A stretch of DNA of 39,194 nucleotides from a virus, in the UHGV virus genome UHGV-0142770, one strand, 5' to 3'. Under the pieces are notes generated by a model. That model worked only from the letters and a program-made list of their open reading frames with translations, was not told the DNA's origin and ran no database searches. Numbering within the stretch: the first letter of the stretch is position 1; each line of letters begins with the position of its first letter. Shown here in pieces: positions 4,907-33,455 of the stretch. A program made the position numbers and the translations under genes.

Positions 4907-4937
4907 GGTTTGTAATTACCAAATTGAGTGCTTATAT

Positions 4938-4952
4938 TTACCTTTGCGGTAA
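4938..4952. promoter_or_regulatory. Candidate repressor operator TTACCTTTGCGGTAA between the small ORF and ant
   Basis: Perfect TTACC-N5-GGTAA palindrome. Confidence 0.45.
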
Positions 4953-5045
4953 ATTTACATCGCACTCCTCTTGTGCCATAGTAATCGGGCACTGGCAAAA
5001 TCCAGTGCCGGGATTGGTCTCCCGGATTACTACAGAGGCACATAT

Positions 5046-5065
5046 GCCGCATAAGCGGTTTTTTT
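5046..5065 (+). terminator. Weak intrinsic terminator/attenuator between small ORF and ant
   Basis: Short GC stem (CCGC-ATAA-GCGG) followed by T7 run 5059-5065, preceded by two longer hairpins at 4988-5009 and 5008-5025. Confidence 0.4.
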
Positions 5066-5219
5066 ATGTGTAAAGCGCACCTATTCTATGGTGGGCTGTG
5101 TGGGGGCACCGAAAGGTGCGCCGGGTTCCTTTGTAGCCGGTAAGACCAACTCTGCACAGTTCACCACCATCTGATTGGTCTCAGCGGTGGTGATTAACCT
5201 AACTACAAAGGTGATCGCC

Positions 5220-19463: not shown

Positions 19464-20456
19464 TTACACCACGCGGGCTTCTGTTTCCAGAAGCGCATCA
19501 GTTTCACGGATTGGTACACCACGGAATGACGTCCACCACTCGCCTTCAGTCTCTTTTACGCTAATCGCCAGAGATGTTTTCTCCAGAGACTGCAAATCAA
19601 GAGCCTGGCCTACAGTGCGGTTCATGTAGAACACCGGGCGCCCCATGCCACGGTTTGGAATGCGATGCAGTGCTTTAACCATCAACTTCGCAATATTTGC
19701 GGCAGAGGAAGGTTCTGAAAGATTGCTGACATCGATGTTTGCAATGCGAACAACATAACGCCAGTCACGCAGAGCAAGTCCGTTATCCCATTTGTAATGG
19801 GTACGGTAGCCTTCGTACTTGCCGCCATTAGCATCTTCCAGTGTCACCTGGCCTTTATCTTCCATCTGAATGCCAGCCTTCTGCCCTTTCGGGAAGATGC
19901 CATGCACGGTGTTTTCGCCCCACACCACTAACCAGATTGAGGTGTTATCTGTACCCGTGCCACCAGCATCAATGATGTTCTGAGCATTACCTGCAGACAG
20001 GCTGGAATAGCGGGAGGACAGTCCCATAAACTGCTGAGGGTTAACGCTGGAATCACCATAAAACAGCGTCTGCGCCATCTGCTGATTCATCGCTTCAATA
20101 AATGCGCGGTCTTCAGACAGGCGGAATTCGGCGGTATTGCCGTTCAGATCAGCCAGTGACTTATCGACTTCAGCATAGGTTTCCAGCATGCCAACGGAAT
20201 CGGTTACCTGCACTGTGGTTGATTTGCTTGGCTGTACGCCATAGTTCAGCAAACGCCAGGTAGCTGAAGGTAAACCAGAACGAATGGTGGTTCGGTGTCC
20301 GGTAGGAAGGTTCCCTTCGACAAAAGGCATATCCTGAAGGATCGGGTTAGTTTGACCGAGAAGCTCGATAATCTTATCGACTTTCCCGTTTGGATCGACG
20401 CGCTTACCCCAGTCAGCCAGCGTTAGCGCAGTTAAGCCTTTAACAGCCATTGTCAT
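19464..20456 (-). CDS. Major capsid protein
   Basis: 330 aa, directly after the scaffold gene; size and position are those of a podovirus major capsid protein. Confidence 0.8.
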   Translation of the reverse strand: MTMAVKGLTALTLADWGKRVDPNGKVDKIIELLGQTNPILQDMPFVEGNLPTGHRTTIRSGLPSATWRLLNYGVQPSKSTTVQVTDSVGMLETYAEVDKSLADLNGNTAEFRLSEDRAFIEAMNQQMAQTLFYGDSSVNPQQFMGLSSRYSSLSAGNAQNIIDAGGTGTDNTSIWLVVWGENTVHGIFPKGQKAGIQMEDKGQVTLEDANGGKYEGYRTHYKWDNGLALRDWRYVVRIANIDVSNLSEPSSAANIAKLMVKALHRIPNRGMGRPVFYMNRTVGQALDLQSLEKTSLAISVKETEGEWWTSFRGVPIRETDALLETEARVV

Positions 20457-20464
20457 TTCCTCTC

Positions 20465-21166
20465 TTATTTGCCATAGAGCACTTCGGCCGCACTACGCTG
20501 GCCTTCATTACCACCGGTGACCATGCCATCTTCAGACATCGCCTTTCCGATTTTCACGAACGTTTTGACCAGATCAGGGTGATTACCCAGCCCGGTGGTG
20601 TTCAGATATTCTTTGAGTTCAGGTGTCCCGAACTGGTCAAGCGCACGCTGTGCGGCGCTAAGGTTAGAAATCAACTTGTCGCCACCGATTTCTTTGTCAG
20701 CTTTTACATCCGCAGCCCACTGCTCGGTTGTTTTCTGCCAGGCTTCTGCCTGGCGCTGCTGAACACCTGCCAGAATCTTCGGATAAGCATCAACCAGCTT
20801 TTGCGCTTGCTCGTTGGTCAGGTTAAGTTCTCGCGCCACCGGCTCGAATTCCTTCAACGCTTCTGTATCCAGCTCTACGCCTTCGGCAGCCTGAAACTCG
20901 TACTTCTCAGGCGCACCCTCTGGTTTATCGCCGTCCTTTTTTTCATCCTGCTTATCGTTTTCAGGCTTTTTGTCATCAGCAGGTTTATCGCCATCAGCAA
21001 CAGGTTGTGGCTTATCACCTTCCTGTTGTGATGGATCACCAACTGGAGCAGGGTTATCACCTGCAGGCGCTGACGGTTCTGACGCAGCCGGAGCTGCTCC
21101 ACCATCGACTGGTTGCTCATTGCAAAGACGGCGATACAGCAAACGCTCAAATAAATTCATGATCAC
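20465..21166 (-). CDS. Scaffolding protein
   Basis: 233 aa, highly acidic/basic low-complexity (Asp/Lys/Pro/Glu-rich) N-half and helical C-half, between portal and capsid. Confidence 0.7.
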   Translation of the reverse strand: MIMNLFERLLYRRLCNEQPVDGGAAPAASEPSAPAGDNPAPVGDPSQQEGDKPQPVADGDKPADDKKPENDKQDEKKDGDKPEGAPEKYEFQAAEGVELDTEALKEFEPVARELNLTNEQAQKLVDAYPKILAGVQQRQAEAWQKTTEQWAADVKADKEIGGDKLISNLSAAQRALDQFGTPELKEYLNTTGLGNHPDLVKTFVKIGKAMSEDGMVTGGNEGQRSAAEVLYGK

Positions 21167-21459
21167 TCCTGTTCACTGGCCTCTTTGGCCATCTTCAAAT
21201 ACTGTTCAGGGCAATGCGCCATAACGCGCTGAAACAGTTCCAGCGCCAGATTGCGTTGCCCCTCATTAAATGCCATTGCCATAGCGTCCATCGGTGAGAT
21301 AGCGGAAAACACACGGCCTTTCTCCAGCACCGACCAGACAACGCGACGCCCCTGTTCACTGCTCATGACAAAGCGAATGTCATCAATTTCACGCTGCGCC
21401 ATGTCACGTTGCTTACGGGCGTTTTCTTCTTTCAGTTGATCGTCTTCGTAATCTGTCAT
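21163..21459 (-). CDS. Small head-module protein (hypothetical)
   Basis: 98 aa, coupled to portal and scaffold genes by overlapping start/stop. Confidence 0.45.
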   Translation of the reverse strand: MTDYEDDQLKEENARKQRDMAQREIDDIRFVMSSEQGRRVVWSVLEKGRVFSAISPMDAMAMAFNEGQRNLALELFQRVMAHCPEQYLKMAKEASEQE

Positions 21460-23135
21460 TGTGATTGCCCACCCTGACCACTAACTGCATTCGCCATAGC
21501 TGACAAAACACTCGGATCCGAAGTTTTAGCTTCGCTTAGCGTCTTGGCACCCTGTGCCGCCGCCATCCCCATCGCCATCATTTGTTGCTGCTGTTGCTGC
21601 TGTGCCCGTTGCTGGCGAGCATGCTCAACCTGTTCCTGCGGAACAATGACGGTTGGAGACACTCCGGACATATCAGCGAATGCATCGATCGCCTGATCAA
21701 CGTTGAGTTTGTCGAGAGCTTCTGGTTTCGCTTGCGCAAGTTGACCAATGAAGTTAACCGTGGACGCCAGACTGGACAGGCCGATAGACTTCTGCGCCTG
21801 AGCCATGACGGAAATGTATTCGACCTTCAGGGGCATGCCTTCCATCGCGTCAGGCGGTGGCGGCAGCATGTTTTTACGCACCATCATCGAGAAAGCGCGG
21901 TCAATGAGAGGATTAAGACATTCGTCGTTCAGACGCTCCAGAACCGGCCCCAACATCAGAAGTTTTTCTTCTTTCATTTCGATCACCGCTTCAACAGGCA
22001 TCGAGCGGGTATTGATGTTCTGCAACATCATGAACAGATCGACAAAGTAGGCGCTGTTAATGATTTGACGAGTGTCCTGAATGTCTGCCACCAAATCTGC
22101 TGTACTGGGGTTAACCAGATAAGCAGGCCTGAAGCCATCCTGACCAGTAATCTGATCGATATACGTGATGTCGCCAGGAAGAAGGGAGGCGCGCTGATTC
22201 TTGAGGGAAGTCGGAGCAACCATCGGCGGATTGGTGGCTTTATCAATCAACTGCGACTTGCGCTTCTGGAGAAGCTGCAATGCCTTAACAGGTCCAAGCG
22301 CCAGCATACCCGGGCATGATGATCCATAAACATCTTCGCCGTTAACTTCCCAGCGCGGAGCCATAATTGGAAACTCATCGAATCCGGACTCACGCAACAA
22401 CTTGTCGTTATCGCCACCAACCTCGTAATAAACCGATTTGAATGGCTTGTTCTTGCTATCCAGCTTCGATGTATCGCGGTCAATGTTCGGGTAAACCGAA
22501 TGCATCACTTCAATCCACTTCTCGTAGGTGCCGCTTTCCCACATGCTTTTTACGGATTCGCTGACGTTATTTAGCCCGAACTCCTGAACAAGCTGACGAA
22601 CAGTCATAGAGAACTTGCGAAAACAGGTGTCCACACTGCCACGAGGTGAGTTAGCCAGGTAGTAACTGCCTATCGGGAATGGCATTGTGCGAATGATGTC
22701 CTCGTCATCCTCCAGCACTGCCATTGCACCAGTGCTGTATGTGCCGAGGCTTCCGTATAACTGCGGCAGCGACTGATAGAGATTCGACTTATTGAACATA
22801 TCGTTCATGCGGTTCTGCACCGCCTCAAGCCACAACTTAACAGGGCCATAATCCATCATTTCAGGATCTGGCGTAGCCAGGCGAAACCACGGACGCGCGG
22901 GGCTTGTGATGCCTGACATCATGCCGCTGGCGAGAGTGCGCGCCGCCATAGTCCCGGTCGAATCAATAATGCGTGTATTGCGTCGATCGTTACGGTTGAC
23001 CTCAGAAGTCAGAAAGCGGGAACCACGTGGGTTGATGTAATCACTCAACTCGCGCCAGTGCGGCTCGAACGACTGACGCTCGCTTTCAAGTTGTGCGAAC
23101 TGTTTGTTCAATCGCTCTTTAGTTGTTTCCGCCAT
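21456..23135 (-). CDS. Portal (head-tail connector) protein, T7 gp8-like
   Basis: 559 aa, first large gene after terminase; Gln-rich C-terminus (QQRAQQQQQQQMMAMGMAAAQ); size and position match podovirus portals. Confidence 0.8.
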   Translation of the reverse strand: MAETTKERLNKQFAQLESERQSFEPHWRELSDYINPRGSRFLTSEVNRNDRRNTRIIDSTGTMAARTLASGMMSGITSPARPWFRLATPDPEMMDYGPVKLWLEAVQNRMNDMFNKSNLYQSLPQLYGSLGTYSTGAMAVLEDDEDIIRTMPFPIGSYYLANSPRGSVDTCFRKFSMTVRQLVQEFGLNNVSESVKSMWESGTYEKWIEVMHSVYPNIDRDTSKLDSKNKPFKSVYYEVGGDNDKLLRESGFDEFPIMAPRWEVNGEDVYGSSCPGMLALGPVKALQLLQKRKSQLIDKATNPPMVAPTSLKNQRASLLPGDITYIDQITGQDGFRPAYLVNPSTADLVADIQDTRQIINSAYFVDLFMMLQNINTRSMPVEAVIEMKEEKLLMLGPVLERLNDECLNPLIDRAFSMMVRKNMLPPPPDAMEGMPLKVEYISVMAQAQKSIGLSSLASTVNFIGQLAQAKPEALDKLNVDQAIDAFADMSGVSPTVIVPQEQVEHARQQRAQQQQQQQMMAMGMAAAQGAKTLSEAKTSDPSVLSAMANAVSGQGGQSQ

Positions 23136-23149
23136 TTCAATGACTCCGG

Positions 23150-23356
23150 TTACTGACCAAGCAGCGTTTTACCGCTGGTATTAGCGGTTGATGTGTCGCC
23201 CTGAGAACCGGTAAGCAGCGTAGAACTACGACCAGCAGCAGCGCGACGGCGACGAGTTTCTTCGTCGCGGGCATCAACAACGGCGGCATCCTGCTCCTGT
23301 GGTGCTGCCTGAACTTCTGGTGTTGCAGGCACTGATGGTGAGCTACCCATGCACAT
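23150..23356 (-). CDS. Small ORF upstream of portal (hypothetical)
   Basis: 68 aa, ATG 23356 with GGAG 8 nt upstream; low-complexity sequence, so uncertain. Confidence 0.35.
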   Translation of the reverse strand: MCMGSSPSVPATPEVQAAPQEQDAAVVDARDEETRRRRAAAGRSSTLLTGSQGDTSTANTSGKTLLGQ

Positions 23357-23446
23357 ATCAATGACTCCGTACGCAATTAAATTATTACCAATTTAACCAC
23401 ATATGATTTATTTATCGTAGATAGTTGACATTTAACGCACAAATTA

Positions 23447-23461
23447 TTACCTTTCAGGTAA
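23447..23461. promoter_or_regulatory. Candidate repressor operator TTACCTTTCAGGTAA, 17 bp downstream of a TTGACA hexamer (23425-23430)
   Basis: Perfect palindrome, identical 16-mer to the site at 4557-4572, between the portal operon start and the tRNA. Confidence 0.5.
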
Positions 23462-23783
23462 GCAAAGAGTTCATTCCGGTTATTAACCTGACTGGCTTGT
23501 CGTTAAATTGAACAGGTGGAGTGAGCTTTTATTTTGAGCAGTACGGCGTATGGCACATGCGCCGATAGCGGTCTGGATACGTTTAAGGGGCACCCTCCCT
23601 TGCTCGGGCAAACGAACCAGGTAGCCGGAATGTGCAAGTCGAGCGGTTTTATTCCGCGCACGGGGATTCACCATCCCGGCGATTCGGTGTGACGCCTCGG
23701 AAGAGACGAGGGTACAACGATGAGAGCATTTATGGAGCCGCGACAAAGTGTGGTGCCTTAACAGGCTAAGTGCTCTCAGCGTT

Positions 23784-23860
23784 GTGGCATTAGCTCAGTT
23801 GGACAGAGCAACCGCCTTCTAAGCGGTTGGTCGCAGGTTCGAATCCTGCATGCCACGCCA
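23784..23860 (+). tRNA. tRNA-Arg (anticodon UCU), phage-encoded
   Basis: 77 nt cloverleaf folded by hand: acceptor GTGGCAT/ATGCCAC, D-arm GCTC...GAGC, anticodon stem ACCGC/GCGGT with loop CTTCTAA (TCT at 23818-23820), T-arm GCAGG-TTCGAAT-CCTGC, discriminator G and encoded CCA. Closely resembles enterobacterial argU. Confidence 0.9.
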
Positions 23861-23903
23861 GAATCACGCCTAAGGACCGTGATGCCAGAAGTTCCAGGTG
23901 CTT

Positions 23904-23946
23904 GGCGGTGATAGTTTCCCTTGAAGTACTATCACCGCCCTTTTTA
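23904..23946 (+). terminator. Intrinsic terminator downstream of tRNA-Arg
   Basis: 11-bp stem GGCGGTGATAG/CTATCACCGCC (23904-23914 and 23929-23939) followed by a T-run at 23941-23945. Confidence 0.75.
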
Positions 23947-24023
23947 CAGCAGGACGCCATTGCGATGACTTCATGCTGTAAACCCGTACAGCCACGGAAG
24001 GCATAACTCATTGCTTCCAGTTC

Positions 24024-24046
24024 GCCCGGTTCGCCGGGCATTTTTT
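24024..24046 (+). terminator. Second intrinsic terminator (UUCG tetraloop)
   Basis: Stem GCCCGG/CCGGGC with loop TTCG, followed by TTTTTT (24041-24046). Confidence 0.75.
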
Positions 24047-24081
24047 GCCTGATGACCACAAATTACCTTAAAGGTATAATC

Positions 24082-24900
24082 ATGAAAAACTTTAAGGTAA
24101 TTAGTATGTTCGAATCGTTCAAAGAGCTGTTTTTATCTACTGCCAATACTGCCGTGCATCGAGCCAAAAACCCTGTGCTTGGTGCTTTTGTTATGTCCTG
24201 GTGCGCCTTCAACTGGAAATCAATTCTTTATCTATTTTTTAGCAAATCAAACATAATAGATAAAATTTCATATATCTCAGATAACAGCACATGGAAAACT
24301 GTTATGTTTTATCCATGCTTATCTGTAATTGCTATCTGCTGCCTATTACCATGGGTAAACAATATCATTAACGTATGGCAAGCAAAGCCTCTTGATAATA
24401 ATGACTCAATCGAAAATCACCTGAAGGCAAGAAAAATCCAGCGTGAAACAAGACTGCAGAGGTTATTGGCTAAAAAAGATGTTACATACGACAAAGTTAA
24501 GACTGGCGCGGAAAAAGACATCCAAGAGATGAAAGAAGAGATTATTCGATCAAAGAATAGTATGGGGGAATTGACTGCCGAGTTGAAAGCTAAAGATGAC
24601 GAATTGAGATCCGCCAGTGCTCAGTTAGCAGCTCTAAATCATTCATTAAAAGAGATATCGGAAACTCTTGGAAGAATGAATGAGGCATATAAGACCCTCC
24701 AAAATGATTTCGACGAATACAAACTCAAATACCCTGAAAAATCTCAAATAAAAAGCCTTGCACTTGGCAACGGCCAAACAATTAGCAACTTTTTGGAGCA
24801 ACACAACTTATCCGGATTAAAATCTGGTAAGCCAAACGTTTTTAATAACTTTGGTGTTCTATCTGGATTATCAGGTTTCGAGGATAAAAATAAAGACTAA
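24082..24900 (+). CDS. AT-rich moron: membrane plus coiled-coil protein of unknown function (candidate exclusion/abortive-infection gene)
   Basis: ATG 24082 (alternatives 24052, 24106). Two hydrophobic segments (LGAFVMSWCAFNW; VMFYPCLSVIAICCLLPWV) then a long Lys/Glu-rich coiled coil. Opposite strand to the late operon; stop overlaps the terL stop. Preceded by an imperfect TTACC-N5-GGTAT site (24063-24077) and TATAAT (24075-24080). Confidence 0.6.
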   Translation: MKNFKVISMFESFKELFLSTANTAVHRAKNPVLGAFVMSWCAFNWKSILYLFFSKSNIIDKISYISDNSTWKTVMFYPCLSVIAICCLLPWVNNIINVWQAKPLDNNDSIENHLKARKIQRETRLQRLLAKKDVTYDKVKTGAEKDIQEMKEEIIRSKNSMGELTAELKAKDDELRSASAQLAALNHSLKEISETLGRMNEAYKTLQNDFDEYKLKYPEKSQIKSLALGNGQTISNFLEQHNLSGLKSGKPNVFNNFGVLSGLSGFEDKNKD

Positions 24901-26372
24901 GCATATGGATCGTACTCGGTAAGCGCCTTGCCTTGCTGGTTCTGCTGACCGGGAATTCGCAGACGCTTCGACACAGGGAACGCAAACGTCAGCAGTAGCG
25001 CATCGCCTTTACCAGGAGAACGCCCAAGCCGCTCTTTGATATCTTCCTTCGGTTCGATAACGATTTTACCGTCCACTCGAACTTTGTACTCTGCCGCCGA
25101 CAGGTCGTCCGCTGTTTCCTGGTCATCCAGCATGCCGCCCAGCCTCAGCCATGTCTTACATGAGTTGAACATCTCCCCACGCTTGTTAAGCATCTGCGGG
25201 TCAGTGGACGCACCGCCGAACGGAACAAGTTGCCATGTACGTCCCCAGCCATCACCGATTGACTTCAAACCGGTTCCGTAACCGAAGTCGATGAACACCG
25301 CGTCAGCCTGGTACTGGTCTTCAAAGTCAGCGATACGCTTCGCCATAATCAGATCGTCGGTGGTCTTGTTGCCGGTCCACAGCACCTTACTGTGCAGCCC
25401 CTGCCGCAGGTATATCACCGCGTCATCAACACCGGAGTATGCAGGGTCAACGCCGATTATCACCGGAGCATGTGCCACCTGCGCAGCAGTTACCACCCGT
25501 TTCATTGCCTCGTCAGTAAGACCGGTAGGGATAAACTGCAATTCAGATGCATCAGGGAATATGCCGCGCACACGGATTTTAACGAAGTCGCTGTCTTCCC
25601 CGTAGTCATCAACCCATTTCTGTAATTGCTGCTTGTTAGTACCTTCCACCGTCCGGCTGTCAATCTGTGCAGTTTTCCAGCGGTGTTTATATTTGCGGAA
25701 ACATTCGCGGAAACGCCCGGTGTTACGTGTCGGGTTTCCGAACGCCACCCAGATAATCTCAGTGTCTTCGTCCGTAAGCGCACCCTCAGCAACTTCCCAC
25801 ACCAGATCCGCAATGTTCGACGCTTCATCGAATACCACGATGATGCGTTTGCGCTCATTGTGTAATCCGGCGAATGCCTCAGTGTTGTGCTCAGACCAGG
25901 GGATTGCGTCAGCTCGCCACCGCTTGTCGTGCCCAGGGTCATTGCTGTACATCGCGGTAGCGGTACAGGTAAACCAGTCTTTCGTGATAGCAAGGTTCGA
26001 CCACTTGATAATTTCCGGCCAGGTCTTCGTTCGTAGCTGGTTGTCGGTGTTGGCGGTCACCACGACCTTACAATCCTCGCAAGTGGACATGCCCCAGTTG
26101 ATCAGCATTGAGATGAATGCGGATTTACCAATACCGTGACCAGAAGCGCGTGCCAGCATAAGCGGCTGATAGCGCGTCTCTGGATTCTGCAGGTGATCAC
26201 GTATCTCTCGGAACGCATCAGCCTGCCACTGACGTGGACCGGTGGCATGTGCCAGTTCAGTCCCCTCTTCCCCCCACGGGAACGCATAGAGGGCATAGCC
26301 AAGCGGATCGTGAGTGAACCCTGCAATATCCTCGATCAACTGCTCTTCAGGAGATAACGCTGCATCTGTCAC
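24897..26372 (-). CDS. terL: Terminase large subunit (TerL)
   Basis: 491 aa after terS with ATGA overlap; N-terminal ATPase region with Walker-A-like GHGIGKS and C-terminal nuclease-like region with conserved acidic residues (VVFDEA, GVDPAYSG). Confidence 0.9.
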   Translation of the reverse strand: MTDAALSPEEQLIEDIAGFTHDPLGYALYAFPWGEEGTELAHATGPRQWQADAFREIRDHLQNPETRYQPLMLARASGHGIGKSAFISMLINWGMSTCEDCKVVVTANTDNQLRTKTWPEIIKWSNLAITKDWFTCTATAMYSNDPGHDKRWRADAIPWSEHNTEAFAGLHNERKRIIVVFDEASNIADLVWEVAEGALTDEDTEIIWVAFGNPTRNTGRFRECFRKYKHRWKTAQIDSRTVEGTNKQQLQKWVDDYGEDSDFVKIRVRGIFPDASELQFIPTGLTDEAMKRVVTAAQVAHAPVIIGVDPAYSGVDDAVIYLRQGLHSKVLWTGNKTTDDLIMAKRIADFEDQYQADAVFIDFGYGTGLKSIGDGWGRTWQLVPFGGASTDPQMLNKRGEMFNSCKTWLRLGGMLDDQETADDLSAAEYKVRVDGKIVIEPKEDIKERLGRSPGKGDALLLTFAFPVSKRLRIPGQQNQQGKALTEYDPYA

Positions 26373-26965
26373 TGATTACCATCCTGACGTTCTTTGAGTC
26401 GCTTCCTGGCTGCCGCTATGCGATCAGCAATTGTCACATTCACATTAACATCCAGGCGTTCTTTGAATGCGTTGACGTCGACGTGCTTACCAATCAGTTC
26501 TAGGTTCTTCACCTTGTCAGGCCATTTAATTTTTTTGAGGATTGTCTCTATCGAATCCTCGTTCATGTTCATGATGGTCGATGACAGATCAAAGCCACTA
26601 AGCGTAGTGCGCCAGATTTTCGGCCACTCACGGATTGGTTTAAGGCTCCCATCGTCGTTGAGGATATCGATCACGTCCATCTGGTCGATCTCCACCAAGC
26701 GCATGAGAACGTAATCAGCACTGACGCGCATTCGTTTGTTGCGCTCCTCCATCAACTCGGCAATCCGTTTTTGAATGCGTTCATCGCGCATCATGACACT
26801 GGCTTTAACTGCCGCTGTATTTGGGGAGAATCCTGCGTTAATCGCTGCCTGAGTCTGGTTTTCAGGCGTTTTGATGTATGACTGGCAATAAGCCTCCTGC
26901 ATTGCTGTGAGCGGCTTAAATTGCGTTGATTTGCGTTTATAGGTTTTAGGTTCAGCAGGCATCAT
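26369..26965 (-). CDS. terS: Terminase small subunit (TerS)
   Basis: Start taken at the ATG pair 26965/26962 (GGTGG just upstream) rather than track TTG at 27043, which would place a terminator hairpin inside the gene. Basic helical N-terminus, coupled to terL. Confidence 0.7.
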   Translation of the reverse strand: MMPAEPKTYKRKSTQFKPLTAMQEAYCQSYIKTPENQTQAAINAGFSPNTAAVKASVMMRDERIQKRIAELMEERNKRMRVSADYVLMRLVEIDQMDVIDILNDDGSLKPIREWPKIWRTTLSGFDLSSTIMNMNEDSIETILKKIKWPDKVKNLELIGKHVDVNAFKERLDVNVNVTIADRIAAARKRLKERQDGNQ

Positions 26966-27009
26966 AACCACCGTGGTAATAGTTACCATTGTGGTAATAG
27001 TACCATGCA

Positions 27010-27034
27010 AAATAAAGCCGCCATAGTTGGCGGC
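27010..27034 (-). terminator. Intrinsic terminator immediately upstream of terS
   Basis: On the minus strand: stem GCCGCC, loop AACTAT, stem GGCGGC (27034-27017), followed by UUUAUUUU (27016-27010). Confidence 0.6.
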
Positions 27035-27083
27035 AGTATTCAAAACCCATCAAATTCATCATGCATAATCTACTCGTGACATG

Positions 27084-27425
27084 TCACACTATTAATTTCG
27101 TTTCATGCCAGCCTTTAGTCACCCAGCATTGCGAGTCACCATTACACGGGCATGAATTTACAGGAACTCTCTCGCCGCACTTACCGCAACGTTTTCTGCT
27201 GATCGATTTTATACGCCCGTGCACGCGTGCATCATCCTGGCGGATCAGTAACGCTATATACTCACCAAATTCGTAAGGCGCACGCCCGGGGCGACGCGTG
27301 GCACAGTTACGCTCCAGCATTTCAATTTCCTGAGCATCAAGCACAATCTCCAGCTTACGCACACCAGATGCAGCTTGTCTGGCTCTCTGAGCGGCTTTGC
27401 GCTCTGCTGCTGATTTAGCCATCAA
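27084..27425 (-). CDS. Cys-rich small basic protein (hypothetical; candidate late-gene regulator by position)
   Basis: 113 aa; C-terminal Cys cluster RCGKCGERVPVNSCPCNGDSQCW; last gene before the late control region. No family recognised. Confidence 0.45.
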   Translation of the reverse strand: MMAKSAAERKAAQRARQAASGVRKLEIVLDAQEIEMLERNCATRRPGRAPYEFGEYIALLIRQDDARVHGRIKSISRKRCGKCGERVPVNSCPCNGDSQCWVTKGWHETKLIV

Positions 27426-27696
27426 TATTTACCTTTATCGCGAACACCTTTACCGGTTTATCACCGAAGTGCGGATGTGTGATTGTCTTGATTTCATATC
27501 CGTCATACGGAATATCAATTCTGCGGCTGGAATCGTCGCGCTTCGGATATCCCTTTGTGATAATCAGGCGGTCATACTTACGATTAACGAGGCGTTTATT
27601 CCAGTAGTCATTGCACAGGCGATACTCTTCCGTTTTCTCCCCGCGAATCATGGCATCGAAGTATTCACCTTTGACGGCAAGTTGCAGGTTAGCCAC
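27415..27696 (-). CDS. ASCH/DUF3850-like domain protein
   Basis: 93 aa; N-terminal LQLAVKGEYFDAMIRGEKTEEYR resembles the ASCH/DUF3850 beta-barrel motif common in lambdoid nin regions. Confidence 0.45.
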   Translation of the reverse strand: MANLQLAVKGEYFDAMIRGEKTEEYRLCNDYWNKRLVNRKYDRLIITKGYPKRDDSSRRIDIPYDGYEIKTITHPHFGDKPVKVFAIKVNIDG

Positions 27697-27973
27697 GACC
27701 TTCCTCCTTTGGCTTGTGAATTTGTATCGTCATGCCGCTTTGAGTGGTGACTACAATGACAGAACCTGGCTGAAGACTGTTAAGATTGAATGCTTCGTAA
27801 AACGAATCCAATGCCAGTGCTTTTTTATTCTTTCGGTTCCACCAACGCCATCCCTTGCTACAGGCTTCACTGACAATCCACTGTCCACTCCTGTAAGCCA
27901 TATAAAACCAGATGAGCAAAACCTGAAGGAATGCTATCCAGTCAATGATCGTATATTTCGCGAAGGAGTCCAT
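27689..27973 (-). CDS. Small membrane protein (hypothetical)
   Basis: Internal ATG 27973 with GGTGGTGA upstream; hydrophobic segment IIDWIAFLQVLLIWFYMAY. Confidence 0.4.
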   Translation of the reverse strand: MDSFAKYTIIDWIAFLQVLLIWFYMAYRSGQWIVSEACSKGWRWWNRKNKKALALDSFYEAFNLNSLQPGSVIVVTTQSGMTIQIHKPKEEGRG

Positions 27974-28181
27974 CACTTCACCACCTGCGCCGTTTTGATG
28001 ATTGCTGCCAGACAATTCTTGCAAGGAACAAGCAGCGTTCCCTGCTCAATGCTCAATAGCGCATGCTGAGCATCCTGAAAAAGCCATTCGAATGACCCTG
28101 GCCGATGACCGCACCATGTCTCAATCTCGTGCTTAGGGAGTTAAACTCCCTCTCGATAGTCATATTTGATGATGTGCTTGC

Positions 28182-28373
28182 TCACGACTTCACCTCCTGT
28201 TGAGCAGAAACCTGATTTTTGAGTGATTCAGAAATATTCCTGCAATACCTAGCGGATTCATCGTCGAAAATGCTTTCGAAATACTCAGCAATCCAGCCGA
28301 ACACAACAACCTGCTCATTGCTTGGATTTGCACTTTGATTGAAGGCGGTTATTAGTGATGCACTCATACTCAC
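28182..28373 (-). CDS. Small hypothetical protein
   Basis: 63 aa ORF coupled to the downstream gene; no motif recognised. Confidence 0.35.
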   Translation of the reverse strand: MSMSASLITAFNQSANPSNEQVVVFGWIAEYFESIFDDESARYCRNISESLKNQVSAQQEVKS

Positions 28374-28891
28374 TTCACCTCCTGCTGCGGTGCTGCTGGC
28401 AGTGGCATCCAGTGGGTAATACTACCTGGATATAAACTCTTTGCTGGCCCCCAGTAGCCATCTGTATTAACACGCATAACCTCACAGCCATCAAAACCAT
28501 CAGTTACAAGAACGTATTCATAAGGTTCCGGCATCCTTTCGCTTACCGGAATCCAACCATCCGGAGTTGCCGGAGAGTTGCCATTTATATCGAAGTTTGG
28601 CTCTGCGTCCTGAACCAGGAGGATGTAACCATTCTTGGCAGTATCAAGTTCTAACGCCTCGGTGACGGTACCGAAATAGCGATTACCTAAATCAGCATCA
28701 CAAGTGCTTACATCAATGGAAACTTCCATCCCTTCGATTAATTCTGGCAAGTTGTAAGTTTGGCTTACAGGCTCTGCTTCCAGTGATGCCAGTGCAATTC
28801 GTGCCAGTTCCATTTGTTCGCCACGAGTAAGTCCGTTATCAAGCGGATTTTTAATGAATAATTCGATACGTTCTTTGGTTATAGCGCTCAT
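28370..28891 (-). CDS. DUF551-like phage protein
   Basis: ATG 28891 with AAGGAGA upstream, abutting the upstream stop. C-terminal GWIPVSERMPEPYEYVLV...GSITHWMPLP is the DUF551 signature as I recall it. Confidence 0.6.
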   Translation of the reverse strand: MSAITKERIELFIKNPLDNGLTRGEQMELARIALASLEAEPVSQTYNLPELIEGMEVSIDVSTCDADLGNRYFGTVTEALELDTAKNGYILLVQDAEPNFDINGNSPATPDGWIPVSERMPEPYEYVLVTDGFDGCEVMRVNTDGYWGPAKSLYPGSITHWMPLPAAPQQEVK

Positions 28892-28892
28892 A

Positions 28893-29621
28893 TCACTCTC
28901 CTTTGATGCGAATGCCAGCGACGCGTGGCACATTAACTTCCACGATGCGCACAGTTGGTTTGTACATCTCAATCGCTGTCAGCCAGTCAGCGCCAGTCAT
29001 GCGCTTTTCTGCATCGCCATTAGTCCACTTAACCGGTACACCAATAGCCTTCATCGCGATTTCTATTTCCCCGGCAATGGCGCTTTTTCCGCAACCAGTA
29101 AAACCAGAAACAACGACAAGAACTTCGCCTTTGGCTGGTTTTATTTCCCGCGCTTCCAGTTCTGCTATGCGCTTCTCTGATGCTTCAAGTAACGCCTGCT
29201 TATCGCGTAGCGCTTCTTCCAGTTCAGCAACATGGCACTCACTATCAATAAGGTTGTTCTCTGCGGCTTCCAGCTCAACACGCAGCTTCCCTACCGTTAG
29301 CGCAATATCCTCGTTCTCCTGATCGCGGCGTTTGATGTATTGCTGGTTTCTTTCCCTTTCATCCAGTAGTGCCAGCACGGTGGCTGGATTGGCTGCGGCG
29401 ATGAATTCAGCATTGGCCTGCTGTTCCATTTGGAAATCTTCATAGAAACGGCTTTCTGGATGCGCTCCTTCAATTCTGCAAATAGGAATATATCCAGCAA
29501 CCTCGCGATGAATTAGTGCATCATCACCATCAAATCGTCCCTCTCCATATTCGAGCGACCACACACCACACGTTGCTTTCTCTGCCTTTTCACGCAGTGC
29601 CTGATAGTCAATCTTGCTCAC
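28893..29621 (-). CDS. ead/Ea22-like protein
   Basis: 242 aa with central coiled coil (LRVELEAAENNL...LEEALRDKQALLEASEKRIAELEAREIKPAKGE) typical of Ea22-like early-region proteins. Confidence 0.5.
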   Translation of the reverse strand: MSKIDYQALREKAEKATCGVWSLEYGEGRFDGDDALIHREVAGYIPICRIEGAHPESRFYEDFQMEQQANAEFIAAANPATVLALLDERERNQQYIKRRDQENEDIALTVGKLRVELEAAENNLIDSECHVAELEEALRDKQALLEASEKRIAELEAREIKPAKGEVLVVVSGFTGCGKSAIAGEIEIAMKAIGVPVKWTNGDAEKRMTGADWLTAIEMYKPTVRIVEVNVPRVAGIRIKGE

Positions 29622-29925
29622 TGGTTGCCTCCTTTGCTGGGCCTTCTAACTTCTGAGTGGTTGTATCAAACTCAAACAACTTAACCACGTCATCAAACAG
29701 GACATAATTGCCATCAGAATCTTCAGTCATGTCAGCGCCACAATCCTGACCGCACGAGTCACAACCATCCATATCAAGCTCGTATCGCTTCAGGTTTGCG
29801 ATATTTGATAAATTCAGCGCCAGTACAGCTAGGTCATAAACCTCGTCAGCGGTATATCCTGCACCATGTCCATACATTTCAATGCGGGATATGATTTCTT
29901 CTACCCGTTGTTTTGTGATTGTCAT
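29608..29925 (-). CDS. Hypothetical acidic protein
   Basis: 105 aa, coupled within the early-right operon. Confidence 0.4.
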   Translation of the reverse strand: MTITKQRVEEIISRIEMYGHGAGYTADEVYDLAVLALNLSNIANLKRYELDMDGCDSCGQDCGADMTEDSDGNYVLFDDVVKLFEFDTTTQKLEGPAKEATSEQD

Positions 29926-30620
29926 TTTTGCTCACCACTCTGTTCTTCCAGAAAAATACGCATAGCCTCAAGCATCTCTTCGGTGTCATACGGAGACAGC
30001 TTGTCACGCAGGATGTGTTCAATGCTGTTAATGAACTTGCGGATTGCTTTGCGTTCAATTTCAGCCAGGAAAGCGTCGGTGGCTGGGGTTTCGATATTAG
30101 GCAGAAGCGCATAATCGCAAATCGTATCGATCGCAGGATCACAACAGTCATCCTCGTTGCGTGGTCGTTCGCCAACCTTCGTTGACGATTGCATGATGAT
30201 TCCCCAGCAAATACTATCGACCTCTTCGCTCCATCCATCGCAAGCATCACCGCGATAGTCGTCGATTGCAGCCTCAGCCGATTCGATAGCTTCCTCAGCA
30301 GTTTTGTGCCATTCGAAATTATGCTCAGAGCCATATGAGAAATATGAATGTCCCGCCTTCAGCCCCGCATTCTCCGCCGCCAGCGCCGAAAACTTCTCGT
30401 GTGCCAACTTAACAGCCGAATCAGCCTGCTTAATTGACTCAATCGCTCTCTGGTGGTCTTCGGCCAGCGCATTAGCACGCACCAGTTGCACTTCCAGTTG
30501 CGTTGCCAAATCGCTGATCAGCTTTGCCACACTGCGCATATCAACGGCACCACATTCTGCTTTCAGTTCCGAAGCCATCTCATGCCCGGCGGCAACTAAC
30601 CCTTTGATATTACTTTCCAT
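29922..30620 (-). CDS. Hypothetical protein
   Basis: 232 aa, acidic, coupled; no motif recognised. Confidence 0.45.
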   Translation of the reverse strand: MESNIKGLVAAGHEMASELKAECGAVDMRSVAKLISDLATQLEVQLVRANALAEDHQRAIESIKQADSAVKLAHEKFSALAAENAGLKAGHSYFSYGSEHNFEWHKTAEEAIESAEAAIDDYRGDACDGWSEEVDSICWGIIMQSSTKVGERPRNEDDCCDPAIDTICDYALLPNIETPATDAFLAEIERKAIRKFINSIEHILRDKLSPYDTEEMLEAMRIFLEEQSGEQK

Positions 30621-30681
30621 CTTTACCCTCGCTTATCCACATAACTTATTGATTACATTGATAACTAAAAAGATCGTCGAT

Positions 30682-31026
30682 TCAGAACTCTTCGATGTTC
30701 CAGCCACCACCTGCTTTCTTTGGCTTAACCGTTACCCCGATGATTCGGAACGGATACTGATCTGCGGCGACTTTGGTTTTCACCCTGGCGTCGTCGGTCC
30801 AGAAACCTTTCACTTCGTGCAGTTCCATCTCGCCGGTGGCGAGCATCACAGCAAAATCGGGCGTATAGAACGTGTTGTCAGCTAACCGCAACTTGATACC
30901 CTCGAATCGATACCAGGCGATTTCCCCTGCACGTTTACGCTGCTCAAGGTGCTGGCAATACGCAGATTCTGTTTTGTTCATCTGGCCTGTTTTGAGTCGA
31001 CCAAGAGCCTGTATCTGTTTTCTCAT
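30682..31026 (-). CDS. PD-(D/E)XK-like small phage protein (DUF1064-like)
   Basis: 114 aa with YTPDF ... ELHEVK spacing compatible with a PD-(D/E)XK nuclease core. A perfect TTACC-N5-GGTAA site lies 4 nt upstream of its ATG. Confidence 0.45.
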   Translation of the reverse strand: MRKQIQALGRLKTGQMNKTESAYCQHLEQRKRAGEIAWYRFEGIKLRLADNTFYTPDFAVMLATGEMELHEVKGFWTDDARVKTKVAADQYPFRIIGVTVKPKKAGGGWNIEEF

Positions 31027-31029
31027 GAT

Positions 31030-31044
31030 TTACCTCTAAGGTAA
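31030..31044. promoter_or_regulatory. Candidate repressor operator TTACCTCTAAGGTAA abutting a -10-like TTTAAT (minus-strand promoter)
   Basis: Perfect palindrome. On the minus strand TTGATT-N17-TTTAAT immediately precedes it, the same layout as the promoter at 34187-34229. Confidence 0.5.
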
Positions 31045-31091
31045 TTAAAAACCACATAAGACACGAAATCAATAGAGTTTAGAATGTTTTG

Positions 31092-31106
31092 TTACCTGAT
31101 AGGTAA
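31092..31106. promoter_or_regulatory. Candidate repressor operator TTACCTGATAGGTAA
   Basis: Perfect palindrome 62 bp from the 31030 site, flanking the same promoter region downstream of the P-like gene. Confidence 0.5.
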
Positions 31107-31143
31107 TTATTGAGACGTAAAAAAATGCGCTATCGCGCTGGTA

Positions 31144-31944
31144 TTACTTGATAAATCCTGCCGCCTTTCCCCGCCTGTATTCCTCCATCAGCCACTGCGC
31201 CGGTGTTATTCCCCCAAGGGTGGCGGCGTTAGGCATGCACCCGAAACTTCGCCCTGGTGGATGGTAAACGTCTCTCCCTGTGTCCGGAGGCGTACTCATG
31301 GGCTCTGGCTTTGCCTGTATGCTGATCACCGGATCGGGTATCTGCTGTCCGGAAGCCACCTTTTTCGCCCAATCATCGAGCAGCCTGCGTGCGTGTTTCT
31401 CAACCTCAATCTCGCTAAGCTGGCGCTGATACATTGCACGGCGGGTATCACATACGACCCAGTACATAACCGGATGTCGCCACGGGAATCTTTCGGGACC
31501 ACCAGGATATAAACTTTTTTCCTTGCTGTACCGGTGAAACTCCGCCATCACATCGTCAATGGTGACGCCAAGAACCATCTTGCTGTCTTTGCACCACTTG
31601 ATAAATTGCCCTGGAGACGGCCAGAACGGAGATTCACTGGCGCGGGCGTGGCGCATACCAGCAGAAACCTGTTCACGGGTTCGGATCCCCCCTTCGGCAA
31701 ACGCAGCAATCCACTGCTGTTTTGCAGCAACTTCCTGCTCTGGCGTCTTCAGGTTGGTTACCACTGCCGCCGGAAACAGTTGTTTCAGCTGTTTAAAAAG
31801 GGCATCAACAAGCCTCTCTGCTGACATGTTCACCACATTGTCATTGTTGACGTACTGATGCTCATAACCTGACATGCGAGAAAGGGCTTCTCCGTCACGG
31901 TTTTGTATCGCGGTAAAAACGTTGTTCACAAGAAATCCTCCCAT
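31144..31944 (-). CDS. Replication protein P-like (helicase loader)
   Basis: 266 aa; QQWIAAFAEGGIRTREQVSAGMRHARASESPFWPSPGQFIKWC closely parallels lambda P (RRQWVLAFRENGITTMEQVNAGMRVARRQNRPFLPSPGQFVAWC). Directly follows the O-like gene. Confidence 0.8.
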   Translation of the reverse strand: MGGFLVNNVFTAIQNRDGEALSRMSGYEHQYVNNDNVVNMSAERLVDALFKQLKQLFPAAVVTNLKTPEQEVAAKQQWIAAFAEGGIRTREQVSAGMRHARASESPFWPSPGQFIKWCKDSKMVLGVTIDDVMAEFHRYSKEKSLYPGGPERFPWRHPVMYWVVCDTRRAMYQRQLSEIEVEKHARRLLDDWAKKVASGQQIPDPVISIQAKPEPMSTPPDTGRDVYHPPGRSFGCMPNAATLGGITPAQWLMEEYRRGKAAGFIK

Positions 31945-32759
31945 GCTTCAGGGCTGTTCCAGTGCGGAACGTTGTTATCAGGTAATGTTGATTGCTTCTG
32001 TCTGCTAATCTGCAGCCGCCTTGCCAGCTTCTGCTCCCACTGCGCCTGATGGTATGCCTTACCCTCAGCCATCCAGTAAATTCTGAACTCTGCAAGTTCC
32101 TGTGCCGTTGGCAGACTGTCCAGGTAGATCCCCTGCAATGAGCTTTTCCGAAGAAAGTCATCTGATGGTTGCCATTGTTCATGCATGACAAATTTGCCTA
32201 ATTGCCCTGGCCCACCAGGAGGAACAAAGTTATTCATCACGGCGTTGTTTGCGCCGGGGTCATGAGGCACAGAATCCCCGCTTTTTGTCCTGCTCTCCCT
32301 CTCTTGGTTAAATGACTGGTTATATGACTGGTTCTGGATCCCGTTTTTGGGATCATTCAACATCCCGTTTTTGGGATCATTCAACATCCCGTTTTTGGGT
32401 ATATTCCCGTTTTCGGTAACATTACCGTTTTCGGTAACATTACCGTTTTCGGGTTCATTACCCCCTTCCCGGTTGCCTTTAATGTTCCCGTTTTTGGTTA
32501 TATTAAGAGAGAAAACCCGCACTCTTTTCGTCGCTCCCTTTCTCTCTCCGGTATCTGAAATAAGCCCCATTTTCATGAGCGATATAAGCCCGGCCTGCAC
32601 GGTTTTTTTATTCAGACAAGTGTCTTTAACGAGGCGTTCTATGCTGGGGTAGCAGAGGTTATATTCATCGGCTCTGTCAGCCATCGAGAGCAGTATGAGC
32701 TTTAATGACGAGCTACCTGGATCTGTCTCCCAGGCCCAATCTGTTGCATGTCTGCTCAT
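31926..32759 (-). CDS. Replication initiator O-like protein with iteron-encoded repeat region
   Basis: 277 aa; N-terminal winged-helix-like region (LKLILLSMADRADEYNLCYPSIERLVKDT...); central NGNVTENGN... repeats are encoded by DNA iterons; followed by the P-like gene with overlap. Confidence 0.75.
   Translation of the reverse strand: MSRHATDWAWETDPGSSSLKLILLSMADRADEYNLCYPSIERLVKDTCLNKKTVQAGLISLMKMGLISDTGERKGATKRVRVFSLNITKNGNIKGNREGGNEPENGNVTENGNVTENGNIPKNGMLNDPKNGMLNDPKNGIQNQSYNQSFNQERESRTKSGDSVPHDPGANNAVMNNFVPPGGPGQLGKFVMHEQWQPSDDFLRKSSLQGIYLDSLPTAQELAEFRIYWMAEGKAYHQAQWEQKLARRLQISRQKQSTLPDNNVPHWNSPEAWEDFL
32338..32505. repeat. Replication origin iterons inside the O-like gene
   Basis: ATCCCGTTTTTGGGATCATTCAAC at 32338-32361 repeats exactly at 32362-32385 with a third partial copy; then CCCGTTTTCGGTAACATTA-type copies at 32406, 32425, 32443 and 32487. 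Seven CCGTTTT(T/C)GG cores with 18-24 bp period. Confidence 0.7.
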
Positions 32760-32774
32760 GATTAATCTCCGCTA

Positions 32775-32975
32775 TCAGCTTGAATGTTGTGGGGAGGAAT
32801 TAATCATGATCTGCTTAATCTCTGCCCTGATACGACGGTTTGATTCCATGGTGCACTCAACACAGTGTCCGTTGTAAACCCAGCGTTCACTGTCATGTCC
32901 GTGCTTACATGTTTTTCCGGTGTAGTAGCGTTTAAGTCCGCGCTTTGCGGCATCAATACGTGTAATGATTTCCAT
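32775..32975 (-). CDS. Small putative Zn-binding regulator at the cII-equivalent position
   Basis: ATG 32975; about 66 aa with C-x-H-G-H ... H-C-V-E-C spacing, between the Cro-like gene and the O-like gene. Confidence 0.4.
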   Translation of the reverse strand: MEIITRIDAAKRGLKRYYTGKTCKHGHDSERWVYNGHCVECTMESNRRIRAEIKQIMINSSPQHSS

Positions 32976-33080
32976 GGTAAGCCCTGTTATTAGTATTGGG
33001 ATTACGGTCATTTTGTGCTGACACAAAAAAAAGATCAACCAGATTTGGTTTTTTATTACCTTTGAGGTACGAATAGATAT

Positions 33081-33104
33081 GAAAAGACCGCCGGATGGCG
33101 GTCT
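33081..33104 (-). terminator. tR1-like intrinsic terminator between the cro-like gene and downstream early genes
   Basis: 8-bp stem AGACCGCC/GGCGGTCT with GGAT loop (33085-33104); on the minus strand followed by UUUUC (33084-33081). Confidence 0.6.
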
Positions 33105-33125
33105 ACAGAGGGTTGTTGCCAGATA

Positions 33126-33356
33126 TCATGAGTAGAAGAAGTATGCCAGTTCCGCTTTTGAGCGCAGCCATTGTCTTGTTTTACAGGCTTTAAAAAGCCC
33201 ATTCATCAATACCTTACCTGGCATTTTGCGCTTACCTGTTAAGTGAGTCTGGATATAGTGACTCGTCGTTCCGGCTTCCTGTGCGAAGGCTTCACGCTCA
33301 TCCGGAGTAAGTGCAAGCCAGTGCTTTTTGAAATCGAAATGTCCGTTATCGCTCAT
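33126..33356 (-). CDS. Cro/YdaS-like HTH regulator
   Basis: 76 aa, first gene of the rightward operon, divergent from the CI-like gene; HTH-like segment AFAQEAGTTSHYIQTHLTGKRK. Confidence 0.6.
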   Translation of the reverse strand: MSDNGHFDFKKHWLALTPDEREAFAQEAGTTSHYIQTHLTGKRKMPGKVLMNGLFKACKTRQWLRSKAELAYFFYS

Positions 33357-33388
33357 AGCTATTGCCTGATATTTATTTCAGATAATAA

Positions 33389-33417
33389 ATATTCACCCAT
33401 AAGGTAACAAAAATCAA
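33389..33417 (-). promoter_or_regulatory. Candidate pR-like promoter for the cro-like gene
   Basis: On the minus strand TTGATT (33417-33412), 17-bp spacer, GAATAT (33394-33389), about 30 nt upstream of cro ATG 33356. Confidence 0.35.
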
Positions 33418-33440
33418 GGATAGTTACCTATGAGGTGCAT

Positions 33441-33455
33441 TTACCTGTTGGGTAA
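33441..33455. promoter_or_regulatory. Candidate repressor operator TTACCTGTTGGGTAA in the cro/CI divergent region
   Basis: Perfect palindrome; an imperfect copy (TTACCTATGAGGTGC, 33424-33438) lies 2 bp away, giving tandem sites 17 bp centre-to-centre. Confidence 0.5.

Follow-up and report, generated by a model that had tools for sequence, protein, structure and literature searches.

The kinds of RNA that come closest to the element described here are the leader RNAs of phage operons, put and C4, and the structured phage RNAs found near transfer RNA (tRNA) genes, GOLLD and ROOL. The put RNAs of phage HK022 are about 70 nucleotides (nt) long, consist of two stem-loops, lie at both pL and pR, and provide a precedent for a protein-free RNA that acts just after pL (PMC9378689). 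Phages also carry GOLLD and ROOL, RNAs of unknown function near tRNAs, and the expression of GOLLD rises during lysis (PMC12286853). In UHGV virus genome UHGV-0142770, a 39,194-nt stretch of phiV10/epsilon15-like Uetakevirus type that is called the window throughout, an element of about 240 nt directly precedes a tRNA-Arg(UCU) gene (Table 1), and this element is very probably a functional structured RNA encoded on the + strand. A preliminary description of the window, made from its letters, had reported the tRNA but missed the main object: judged by alignment, the block upstream of the tRNA is portable, with 70-84% identity to lambdoid and P1-like phages that lack tRNA-Arg.

With HK022 putL and putR the element shares its standing as a structured phage RNA just after a repressor-controlled pL, with no N-type antiterminator and with terminators further downstream. 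It differs in having a core of about 170 nt plus a further helix (P6), with five helices and pseudoknots, in occurring once per phage, in being found also in non-lambdoid phages and beside tRNAs, and in lacking any sequence or model similarity to put. GOLLD and ROOL are likewise structured phage or prophage RNAs near tRNAs, with a variable region able to hold tRNA-like sequence, but they are longer, at 580-800 nt or above, assemble into multimeric cages and come mostly from outside the enterobacteria, whereas the element is confined, as far as found, to phages of Enterobacterales and Stenotrophomonas and has no Rfam match to either; lytic-phase expression, observed for GOLLD, would be expected of the element from its operators.

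Among smaller RNAs, C4 (RF01695) of phages P1 and P7 is similar as a small structured RNA in the leader of a repressor-controlled phage operon, and C4 is matured by RNase P. The element nevertheless has no sequence or structure match to C4, and no complementary targets of its variable part were found in its own genome; the sole C4 match in the window (5084-5171) lies away from it. DicF resembles the element in being a non-coding RNA of an early operon under an immunity repressor that is freed by processing, as the element presumably is, but DicF is a 53-nt base-pairing RNA and the element is far larger and pseudoknotted. Lambda nutL has the same pL-leader position, and the loop of helix P5, GAAGAGA, resembles the nutL boxB loop, GAAGA. 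Unlike nutL, the element has no N gene downstream, boxA-like motifs downstream of it are not enriched (5 of 88 loci, against 3.3 expected), and it also occurs in phages without an N-type system. A perfect rrn-like boxA in one locus (L085) was set aside, as it follows the reverse complement of a terminator belonging to an inserted opposite-strand gene.

Covariation and conservation of the element

The structure was drawn by hand and then tested, over 35 pairs, on two alignments: one made with MAFFT from 42 representatives that share less than 95% identity (A3) and a model-fitted one of 72 distinct sequences (A4). Pairing is intact in 95.3% of cells in A3 and 95.9% in A4, and 16 pairs carry two-sided changes in each. 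Cells with two-sided changes number 120 against a shuffle mean of 35 in A3 and 226 against 66 in A4, and none of 500 shuffles of either alignment was as good as the real data; sliding the 3' partners by one to three columns lowers pairing to 26-45% (A3) or 26-44% (A4). Because the G-U pairs 29-90, 6-16, 3-19 and 141-155 are invariant or frequent, and would be A-C mismatches on the other strand, it is the + strand that is functional. Taken together, these substitution patterns show, on comparative grounds, that selection acts on the element as an RNA of the + strand, which bears out the suggestion in the preliminary description of a co-transcribed structured RNA upstream of the tRNA. The 19-mer is nearly invariant: among 56 loci sampled without requiring it, 43 hold it exactly, and the others are mostly one base off, with two loci that end at a contig end and one that is more divergent.

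Support is spread over several helices. In helix P1, where 98.8% of cells are paired, 37 sequences have G-C at pair 5-17 and 34 have A-U (A4). Helix P2, which in the lineage of the window encloses two small hairpins (23585-23601 and 23600-23611), has C-G in 51 and U-A in 20 sequences at pair 31-88, G-C in 45 and A-U in 21 at pair 38-82 (both A4), and an invariant U-G at 29-90. The short hairpin P3 differs in sequence and length among relatives. Two-sided changes affect three of the four pairs of P4, with 97.9% of cells paired, and four of the five pairs of P5 (A4). Of the two pseudoknots, PK2 joins the P4 loop to a downstream GGUG: at its pair 147-167, 65 sequences have C-G, seven have A-U and none has a mismatch, and 99.3% of PK2 cells are paired (A4), although the seven A-U sequences represent one or two lineages only. 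PK1 is a candidate pseudoknot; RNAalifold also chose this pairing, both sides are invariant and so show no covariation, and the few variants are one that gives U-G and two singletons that break a pair.

The 3' part of the element is the long helix P6, whose apical insert is hypervariable and whose last two pairs take in nucleotides 1-2 of the tRNA. About 49 of 74 distinct downstream sequences, some two thirds of lineages, have P6; its duplex energies run from -18 to -28 kcal/mol, its stems are compensatory (GAUGAGAGCA/UGCUCUCAGC in one case, GGUAAGAGCA/UGCUCUUUCC in another), and as a whole it measures 44-133 nt. In three loci, L009 and L127 (SPN9TCW) and L100, the insert holds a T-arm-like GGTTCAATTCC or GGTTCGATTCC, which recalls the tRNAs that sometimes lie inside the variable linker of GOLLD.

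Table 1. Coordinates of the element, its transcription unit and the adjoining genes in the window
Feature	Position	Strand	Basis
RNA element, about 240 nt	23544-23783	+	covariation, covariance model
Conserved core (P1-P5 and two candidate pseudoknots)	23544-23716	+	covariance model R1, 145 bits, E=2e-40
Near-invariant 19-mer GGUAGCCGGAAUGUGCAAG	23620-23638	+	alignment
P1 hairpin, loop AUGGCACAU	23544-49 with 23559-64	+	covariation
P2 multi-part helix	23568-75 with 23618-25; 23580-82 with 23612-14	+	covariation
P3 short hairpin, GCGG-UUUUAUU-CCGC	23643-23657	+	read from alignments A2 and A3; indels
P4 hairpin, GGGA-UUCACCA-UCCC	23663-66 with 23674-77	+	covariation
P5 hairpin, CCUCG-GAAGAGA-CGAGG, conserved purine loop	23695-99 with 23707-11	+	covariation
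P6 long helix, hypervariable apical insert	23714-28 with 23771-85	+	duplex energies, compensatory stems
PK1 candidate pseudoknot, GCACAU with AUGUGC	23553-58 with 23630-35	+	RNAalifold also chose pairing
PK2 pseudoknot, CACC (P4 loop) with GGUG	23669-72 with 23686-89	+	compensatory change
Sigma-70-like promoter, TTGACA-17-TACCTT	23425-23453	+	sequence reading and promoter scan
Operator palindrome TTACCTTTCAGGTAA, overlapping the -10 hexamer	23447-23461		pattern count
tRNA-Arg(UCU), CCA end encoded	23784-23860	+	ARAGORN, Rfam RF00005
T1 terminator-like hairpin, 12-bp stem, 12-nt loop, then CUUUUU	23904-23945	+	fold, -21.3 kcal/mol
T2 intrinsic terminator GCCCGGTTCGCCGGGC, then AUUUUUU	24024-24046	+	tool scan and fold
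Second promoter, ATGACC-17-TATAAT, with second operator (24063-24077), before ORF 24082-24900	24052-24080	+	tool scan, operator count
272-aa ORF	24082-24897 (also listed as 24082-24900)	+	PHROG 4780 match; own promoter and operator
Opposite-strand insert, 1.54 kb	23357-24896	+	opposite in strand to both flanking genes
Portal gene	ORF 21456-23135	-	Pfam Head-tail_con, 1.6e-187
Terminase large subunit gene	ORF 24897-26372	-	annotation in relatives

None of the 4227 models of Rfam 15 matches the element, either at the gathering threshold over the whole window or at E<=10 over 23300-24100, and no known riboswitch or ribozyme class overlaps 23480-23780 at E<=10. Its pattern of change is not that of a protein-coding sequence: the best frame on either strand is open across the core in at most 16 of the 42 representatives, the spacing of conserved blocks shifts by non-multiples of three, and tblastn matches over the element are split among frames. 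A gene on the - strand might still be suggested by the open reading frames (ORFs) of at least 60 amino acids (aa) that overlap the element in 99 loci and that some records annotate, among them 23483-23746 in the window and mEp460_037, a hypothetical protein in mEp460 (L001, 2443-2811). The frame is not conserved among these loci, however, and beyond the indels and split matches already given, the + strand specificity of the G-U pairs speaks against such a gene and against a site acting at the level of DNA, such as an origin or recombination site; the element is, moreover, always co-oriented with a promoter directly upstream. Both readings are very improbable, and the - strand ORFs such as mEp460_037 are probably spurious, an artefact of annotation.

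Still harder to credit is a degenerate tRNA, which the preliminary description had entertained for 23480-23780, or a decayed tRNA array. A T-loop-like P4 loop (UUCACCA), the adjacency of tRNAs and the presence of GGTTCAATTCC in some P6 inserts all invite it. ARAGORN finds no tRNA in the interval, Rfam returns nothing there even at E<=10, the covarying helices do not form a cloverleaf, and the conservation of the 19-mer across loci is too strong for decay, so that this reading is effectively refuted. The T-arm-like GGGA-TTCACCA-TCCC element that had been described is indeed present, at 23663-23677, but it is helix P4 of the conserved RNA and does not belong to a tRNA, as the empty ARAGORN and Rfam results indicate. 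The degenerate-tRNA, coding and DNA-site readings are thus essentially excluded.

Distribution in phages, plasmids and prophages

Phages phiV10 and TL-2011b and O157 typing phages 9 and 10 are 98-99% identical to the window across 23357-24060. Further afield, similarity narrows to 23543-23790, which is 82-84% identical in phages mEp460, cdtI, 2H10, Ayreon, Stx2c and Stx2a, about 80% identical in P1, P7, D6, SJ46 and hundreds of P1-like phage-plasmids, and about 70-75% identical in phages of Salmonella, Klebsiella, Enterobacter and Stenotrophomonas. The sequence that flanks the element is unrelated in every matched phage, and there is almost never an annotation at the element itself. At least 120 IMG/VR contigs contain the exact 19-mer GGTAGCCGGAATGTGCAAG, in 107 distinct versions of the element. 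When one genome per species was scanned and the matches were checked with a covariance model, 22 proved true, 21 of them in named genera of Enterobacteriaceae; the lone exception, a 1.7-kb contig of a metagenome-assembled genome labelled Bacillota, is probably mis-binned. The 173-nt core is carried by 1840 of 5426 complete Escherichia coli genomes, at 1917 sites on chromosomes and 554 on plasmids, nearly all of them unannotated. Comparison across these genomes shows the element to be a portable module common to temperate phages of three unrelated groups, lambdoid, P1-like and epsilon15-like.

Each phage as a rule has one copy. Covariance model R1 finds a single copy in the window, and no extra copy was found elsewhere in the window or in 22.5 kb of mEp460 that take in the pR operon. 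The only double copy found is in an IMG/VR contig (L023, - strand), where some 650 nt, including a gene on the opposite strand, separate the copies at 3995-4152 and 4802-4957; the second copy is degenerate, with the 19-mer and P4 altered.

Phage, plasmid and RefSeq records leave the element without annotation. Of ten strings of 15-19 letters (five sequences, in DNA and RNA spelling), none occurs in the searchable literature, and keyword searches returned no description of it, with the 2004 P1 genome paper and a 2026 preprint on the mining of non-coding elements lying outside the search. There is a real, if lesser, chance that the element has already been described somewhere.

Transcription unit and genomic context

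In the window the element belongs to a + strand unit that contains only RNAs: an operator-bearing promoter, an 83-nt leader, the element, tRNA-Arg(UCU) and two tandem terminator hairpins. The promoter, which was absent from a stricter tool scan and scored in a separate promoter scan, would start transcription near 23460, and it is kept 90 nt 5' of the element in all phiV10-type loci. The palindrome TTACCTNNNAGGTAA, with up to two mismatches, has 16 occurrences in the window where 0.65 would be expected; none of 100 shuffles has as many, and the palindrome is therefore a genuine operator family; its sites include 23447, 24063, 31030, 31092, 33056-33441, 34153 and 34215. This count indicates a scattered repressor regulon of the kind that P1 C1 has, with the operator clusters probably marking the immunity region around 31-34 kb. 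The TTGACA promoter and operator proposed in the preliminary description are accordingly plausible, with the operator statistic in their support. The second promoter and operator lie past the terminators, so the ORF at 24082 is separately repressor-controlled.

The two strong terminators of the preliminary description also hold, as terminator-like hairpins 3' of the tRNA, T2 through the tool scan and T1 through its stable fold before a U-run; T1 escaped the scan because its loop exceeds 8 nt. The T1 region (23893-23940, +) aligns over the full length of the DicF model, weakly, at 16.9 bits against a gathering score of 48 and an E value of about 0.2. A DicF-like small RNA 3' of the tRNA is possible as a candidate; an identification of T1 as DicF was rejected, the match being below the gathering score.

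Context was counted over 127 loci, all of them phage or prophage. In 69 a gene for a CI-type repressor (PHROG 4) ends about 100-160 nt upstream on the same strand. Another 37 are Uetakevirus loci, of which about 28 have tRNA-Arg(UCU) 3' of the element, at an offset from the 19-mer of +163 to +171 in about 25 loci and of +221 to +229 in three. The P1-like loci, about 19 in number, have tRNA-Ile(CAU) ending 14 nt upstream and ban or other genes downstream; in P1 itself 2.3 kb of the ban operon precede the element and about 100 nt separate it from ban downstream. A tRNA adjoins the element in about 47 loci altogether, at fixed offsets and on the strand of the element. Despite many immunity types, promoter-like sites are found 30-125 nt 5' of the element in most non-P1 loci, and the leader upstream of helix P1 is not conserved.

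Among lambdoid phages, mEp460 has the order cI stop, terminator, two operators (TTGCG-N5-WGCAA), promoter TTGCAT-17-TATCTT and element, which begins about 40 nt after the predicted start. The same operator also lies between cI and cro, and the mEp460 promoter is therefore oL/pL. Genes downstream are of the SfV early-left kind: PHROGs of unknown function, a YfdQ-like gene, a YfdR-like dNMP phosphatase and a ParB-like gene. No N gene is annotated or was detected among the genes downstream of the element in lambdoid loci, and SfV, SfII and SfIV are described as lacking N, cII and cIII (PMC3851460). Two further structures were seen in mEp460 (L001): a 10-bp hairpin followed by CGCUCUUUUUACAA, which is both boxA-like and U-run-like (2886-2945), and a 15-bp long-range inverted repeat, ACAAAACAGAGAAGA and TCTTCTCTGTTTTGT around about 55 nt, before the first early-left gene (2945-3035).

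Possible functions

Tentatively, and with somewhat more doubt than conviction, we favour a trans-acting, stable, early-lytic RNA that is released by tRNA processing. With loss of repressor the unit would be transcribed early and strongly; promoters under the immunity repressor imply that the element should be made early after derepression. RNase P would then cut between 23783 and 23784, which would place the 3' end of the freed element at the base of P6, and it is the fixed abutment to tRNAs that suggests release by tRNA processing. In P1-like phages the processing of the tRNA 3' trailer would set the 5' side of the element, and in lambdoid phages a downstream terminator with 3' trimming to P6 would set its 3' end. 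The freed RNA would work in trans as a stable structured RNA, most likely with a conserved host component as partner; a host partner is favoured because no phage protein appears to travel with the element and because its unpaired nucleotides are near-invariant from phages of Enterobacteriaceae to those of Stenotrophomonas. When the window was set beside 56 kb of P1 and 22.5 kb of mEp460, the element was all that the three had in common. The tRNA would be cargo that uses the same strong, early and well-terminated stable-RNA unit and supplies AGA/AGG decoding. Processing of DicF from an early prophage operon is a precedent, and a "dicF-like region" is annotated in the P1 ban operon that carries the element; GOLLD and ROOL, as phage RNAs beside tRNAs, are further precedents.

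Several observations weigh against a trans-acting RNA. The ends of the mature RNA are ones that we infer from sequence. The comparison that gave no shared phage protein covered only part of the P1 and mEp460 genomes. Pairing energies of the conserved single-stranded blocks with the E. coli rrnH operon (16S, 23S and 5S ribosomal RNA and tRNAs) equal those of shuffled controls, and complements of P6 inserts in their own genomes are no longer than those of foreign inserts, bar one 14-mer in locus L040. In P1 the element runs into ban without an intervening terminator. In lambdoid phages it is always the first feature after pL, and in mEp460 a strong hairpin with a U-run, but no obvious promoter, separates it from the early-left genes, a layout that is what a cis-acting antiterminator would be expected to look like.

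Such an antiterminator, a put-like RNA that would bind its own RNA polymerase while nascent, carry it processively through downstream terminators and so replace N and nutL in N-less lambdoid phages, is the main rival and is possible, if on the whole unlikely. In its favour, the 69 loci with an upstream cI have the element in the nutL or putL position, co-oriented with the promoter that comes after cI and no more than about 125 nt downstream of it; in mEp460 this promoter carries oR-type operators; and 140-260 nt past the core a strong hairpin and U-run are present in about two thirds of lineages, with no promoter found in mEp460 between that hairpin and the first early-left gene. The early-left genes that follow include no N, in keeping with the reports on SfV, SfII and SfIV, and put shows that an RNA in this place can act without a protein. 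Against this, HK022 has both putL and putR whereas the element has no copy in the pR leader, and at about 170-240 nt with pseudoknots it bears little likeness to the two stem-loops of put; model R1, for its part, finds nothing in HK022 24000-33000, 9 kb that should span the early region. Enrichment of boxA-like motifs downstream is likewise missing. The unit in the window presents a further difficulty, as it holds only RNAs, ends in two strong terminators and is followed by an ORF with its own promoter and operator, so that read-through would run antisense into the terminase genes; and in P1 the element is well inside the ban operon, not at its start.

Two other readings are improbable. A self-cleaving or processing ribozyme could set RNA ends in early polycistronic transcripts, trimming the 5' leader or splitting the element from tRNA or messenger RNA, and the compact core of about 165 nt, with nested helices, pseudoknots and long invariant unpaired runs, has the pattern typical of catalytic cores such as the glmS and HDV-like ribozymes. 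The fixed distances to tRNAs and the unconserved leader 5' of helix P1 would also fit, but no Rfam ribozyme family matches even at E<=10, no conserved candidate cleavage site was identified, and RNase P and RNase E already explain tRNA-linked processing. Marginally less credible again is a cis-regulatory leader, either a riboswitch-like sensor or a stabiliser of messenger RNA, for the next gene. Its position 5' in the transcript, as before ban in P1, and its complex conserved fold would suit such a role, whereas what lies downstream is unrelated from phage to phage (tRNA, ban, SfV-like early genes, opposite-strand inserts), no expression platform adjoins the core, the region past P6 is not conserved, and no riboswitch family matches. 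A broader reading, possible but on the whole unlikely, is that the element represents a hitherto unrecognised immediate-early class of phage RNA, either a substitute for N and nut (in cis, conceivably in trans) or a host-directed decoy or takeover RNA, that is exchanged among lambdoid, P1-like and epsilon15-like phages.

Whichever reading proves correct, the element sits in the early control regions of well-studied phages, P1 and the Stx2-converting, SfV-, HK97- and epsilon15-like phages among them. As an antiterminator it would explain how early-left operons are expressed in N-less lambdoid phages and would add to the RNAs that reprogram RNA polymerase a second class with an unrelated structure. 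If it acts in trans, it would be a host-directed, immediate-early factor that is portable and belongs to a system well suited to genetics. In either case it merits an Rfam family, and the opposite-strand hypothetical proteins such as mEp460_037 should be removed.

The tRNA gene and neighbouring features

The only tRNA that ARAGORN reports for the window is tRNA-Arg (anticodon TCT) at 23784-23860 (+), and Rfam places it in RF00005 at 73.3 bits against a gathering score of 29, so the tRNA-Arg(UCU) of the preliminary description is sound; it is already annotated in several related GenBank records (the phiV10/TL-2011b/typing-phage group). In its D and T arms it is like E. coli argU. It is an ordinary gene of the same kind as other phage-borne tRNA-Arg(UCU) genes, and its only unusual trait is the conserved element that forms its 5' leader.

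Over the 41 ORFs of the window AGA is used 7.6 times and AGG 3.8 times per 1000 codons, several-fold over the E. coli average. That the tRNA might supplement AGA/AGG decoding, as had been proposed with the phage late genes in mind, is plausible for the genome overall; the part that concerned late genes does not stand for the adjacent ones, as the stretch 19464-26989, with the head, portal and terminase genes, hardly uses either codon. Both cluster in tail, tailspike and accessory genes, and it is therefore these that tRNA-Arg(UCU) would mainly serve.

The position of the tRNA between portal and terminase genes on the opposite strand was correctly described, both flanking ORFs being on the - strand, although the insert measures 1.54 kb and not 1.7 kb. 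The slot had further been proposed as a possible recombination hotspot, for which support is indirect: the ORF in the slot varies among relatives, and the tRNA-Arg is missing from it in Salmonella phage PAT1. In the window this ORF, at 24082, encodes a protein with a hydrophobic N-terminal half and a coiled-coil C-terminal half that matches PHROG 4780, of unknown function, and has no Pfam match above cut-off; other relatives have a 372-nt ORF (typing phage 9) or a DUF2829 protein (a Klebsiella phage) in the same slot.

Well away from the insert, isrK (74.7 bits, 4989-5065) and C4 antisense RNA (78.6 bits, 5084-5171) adjoin on the + strand as gathering-level Rfam matches, and two copies of the phage operator (4558 and 4938) precede the pair. 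The matches and operators together make up a P1-immI-like antirepressor control module, here in a Uetakevirus.

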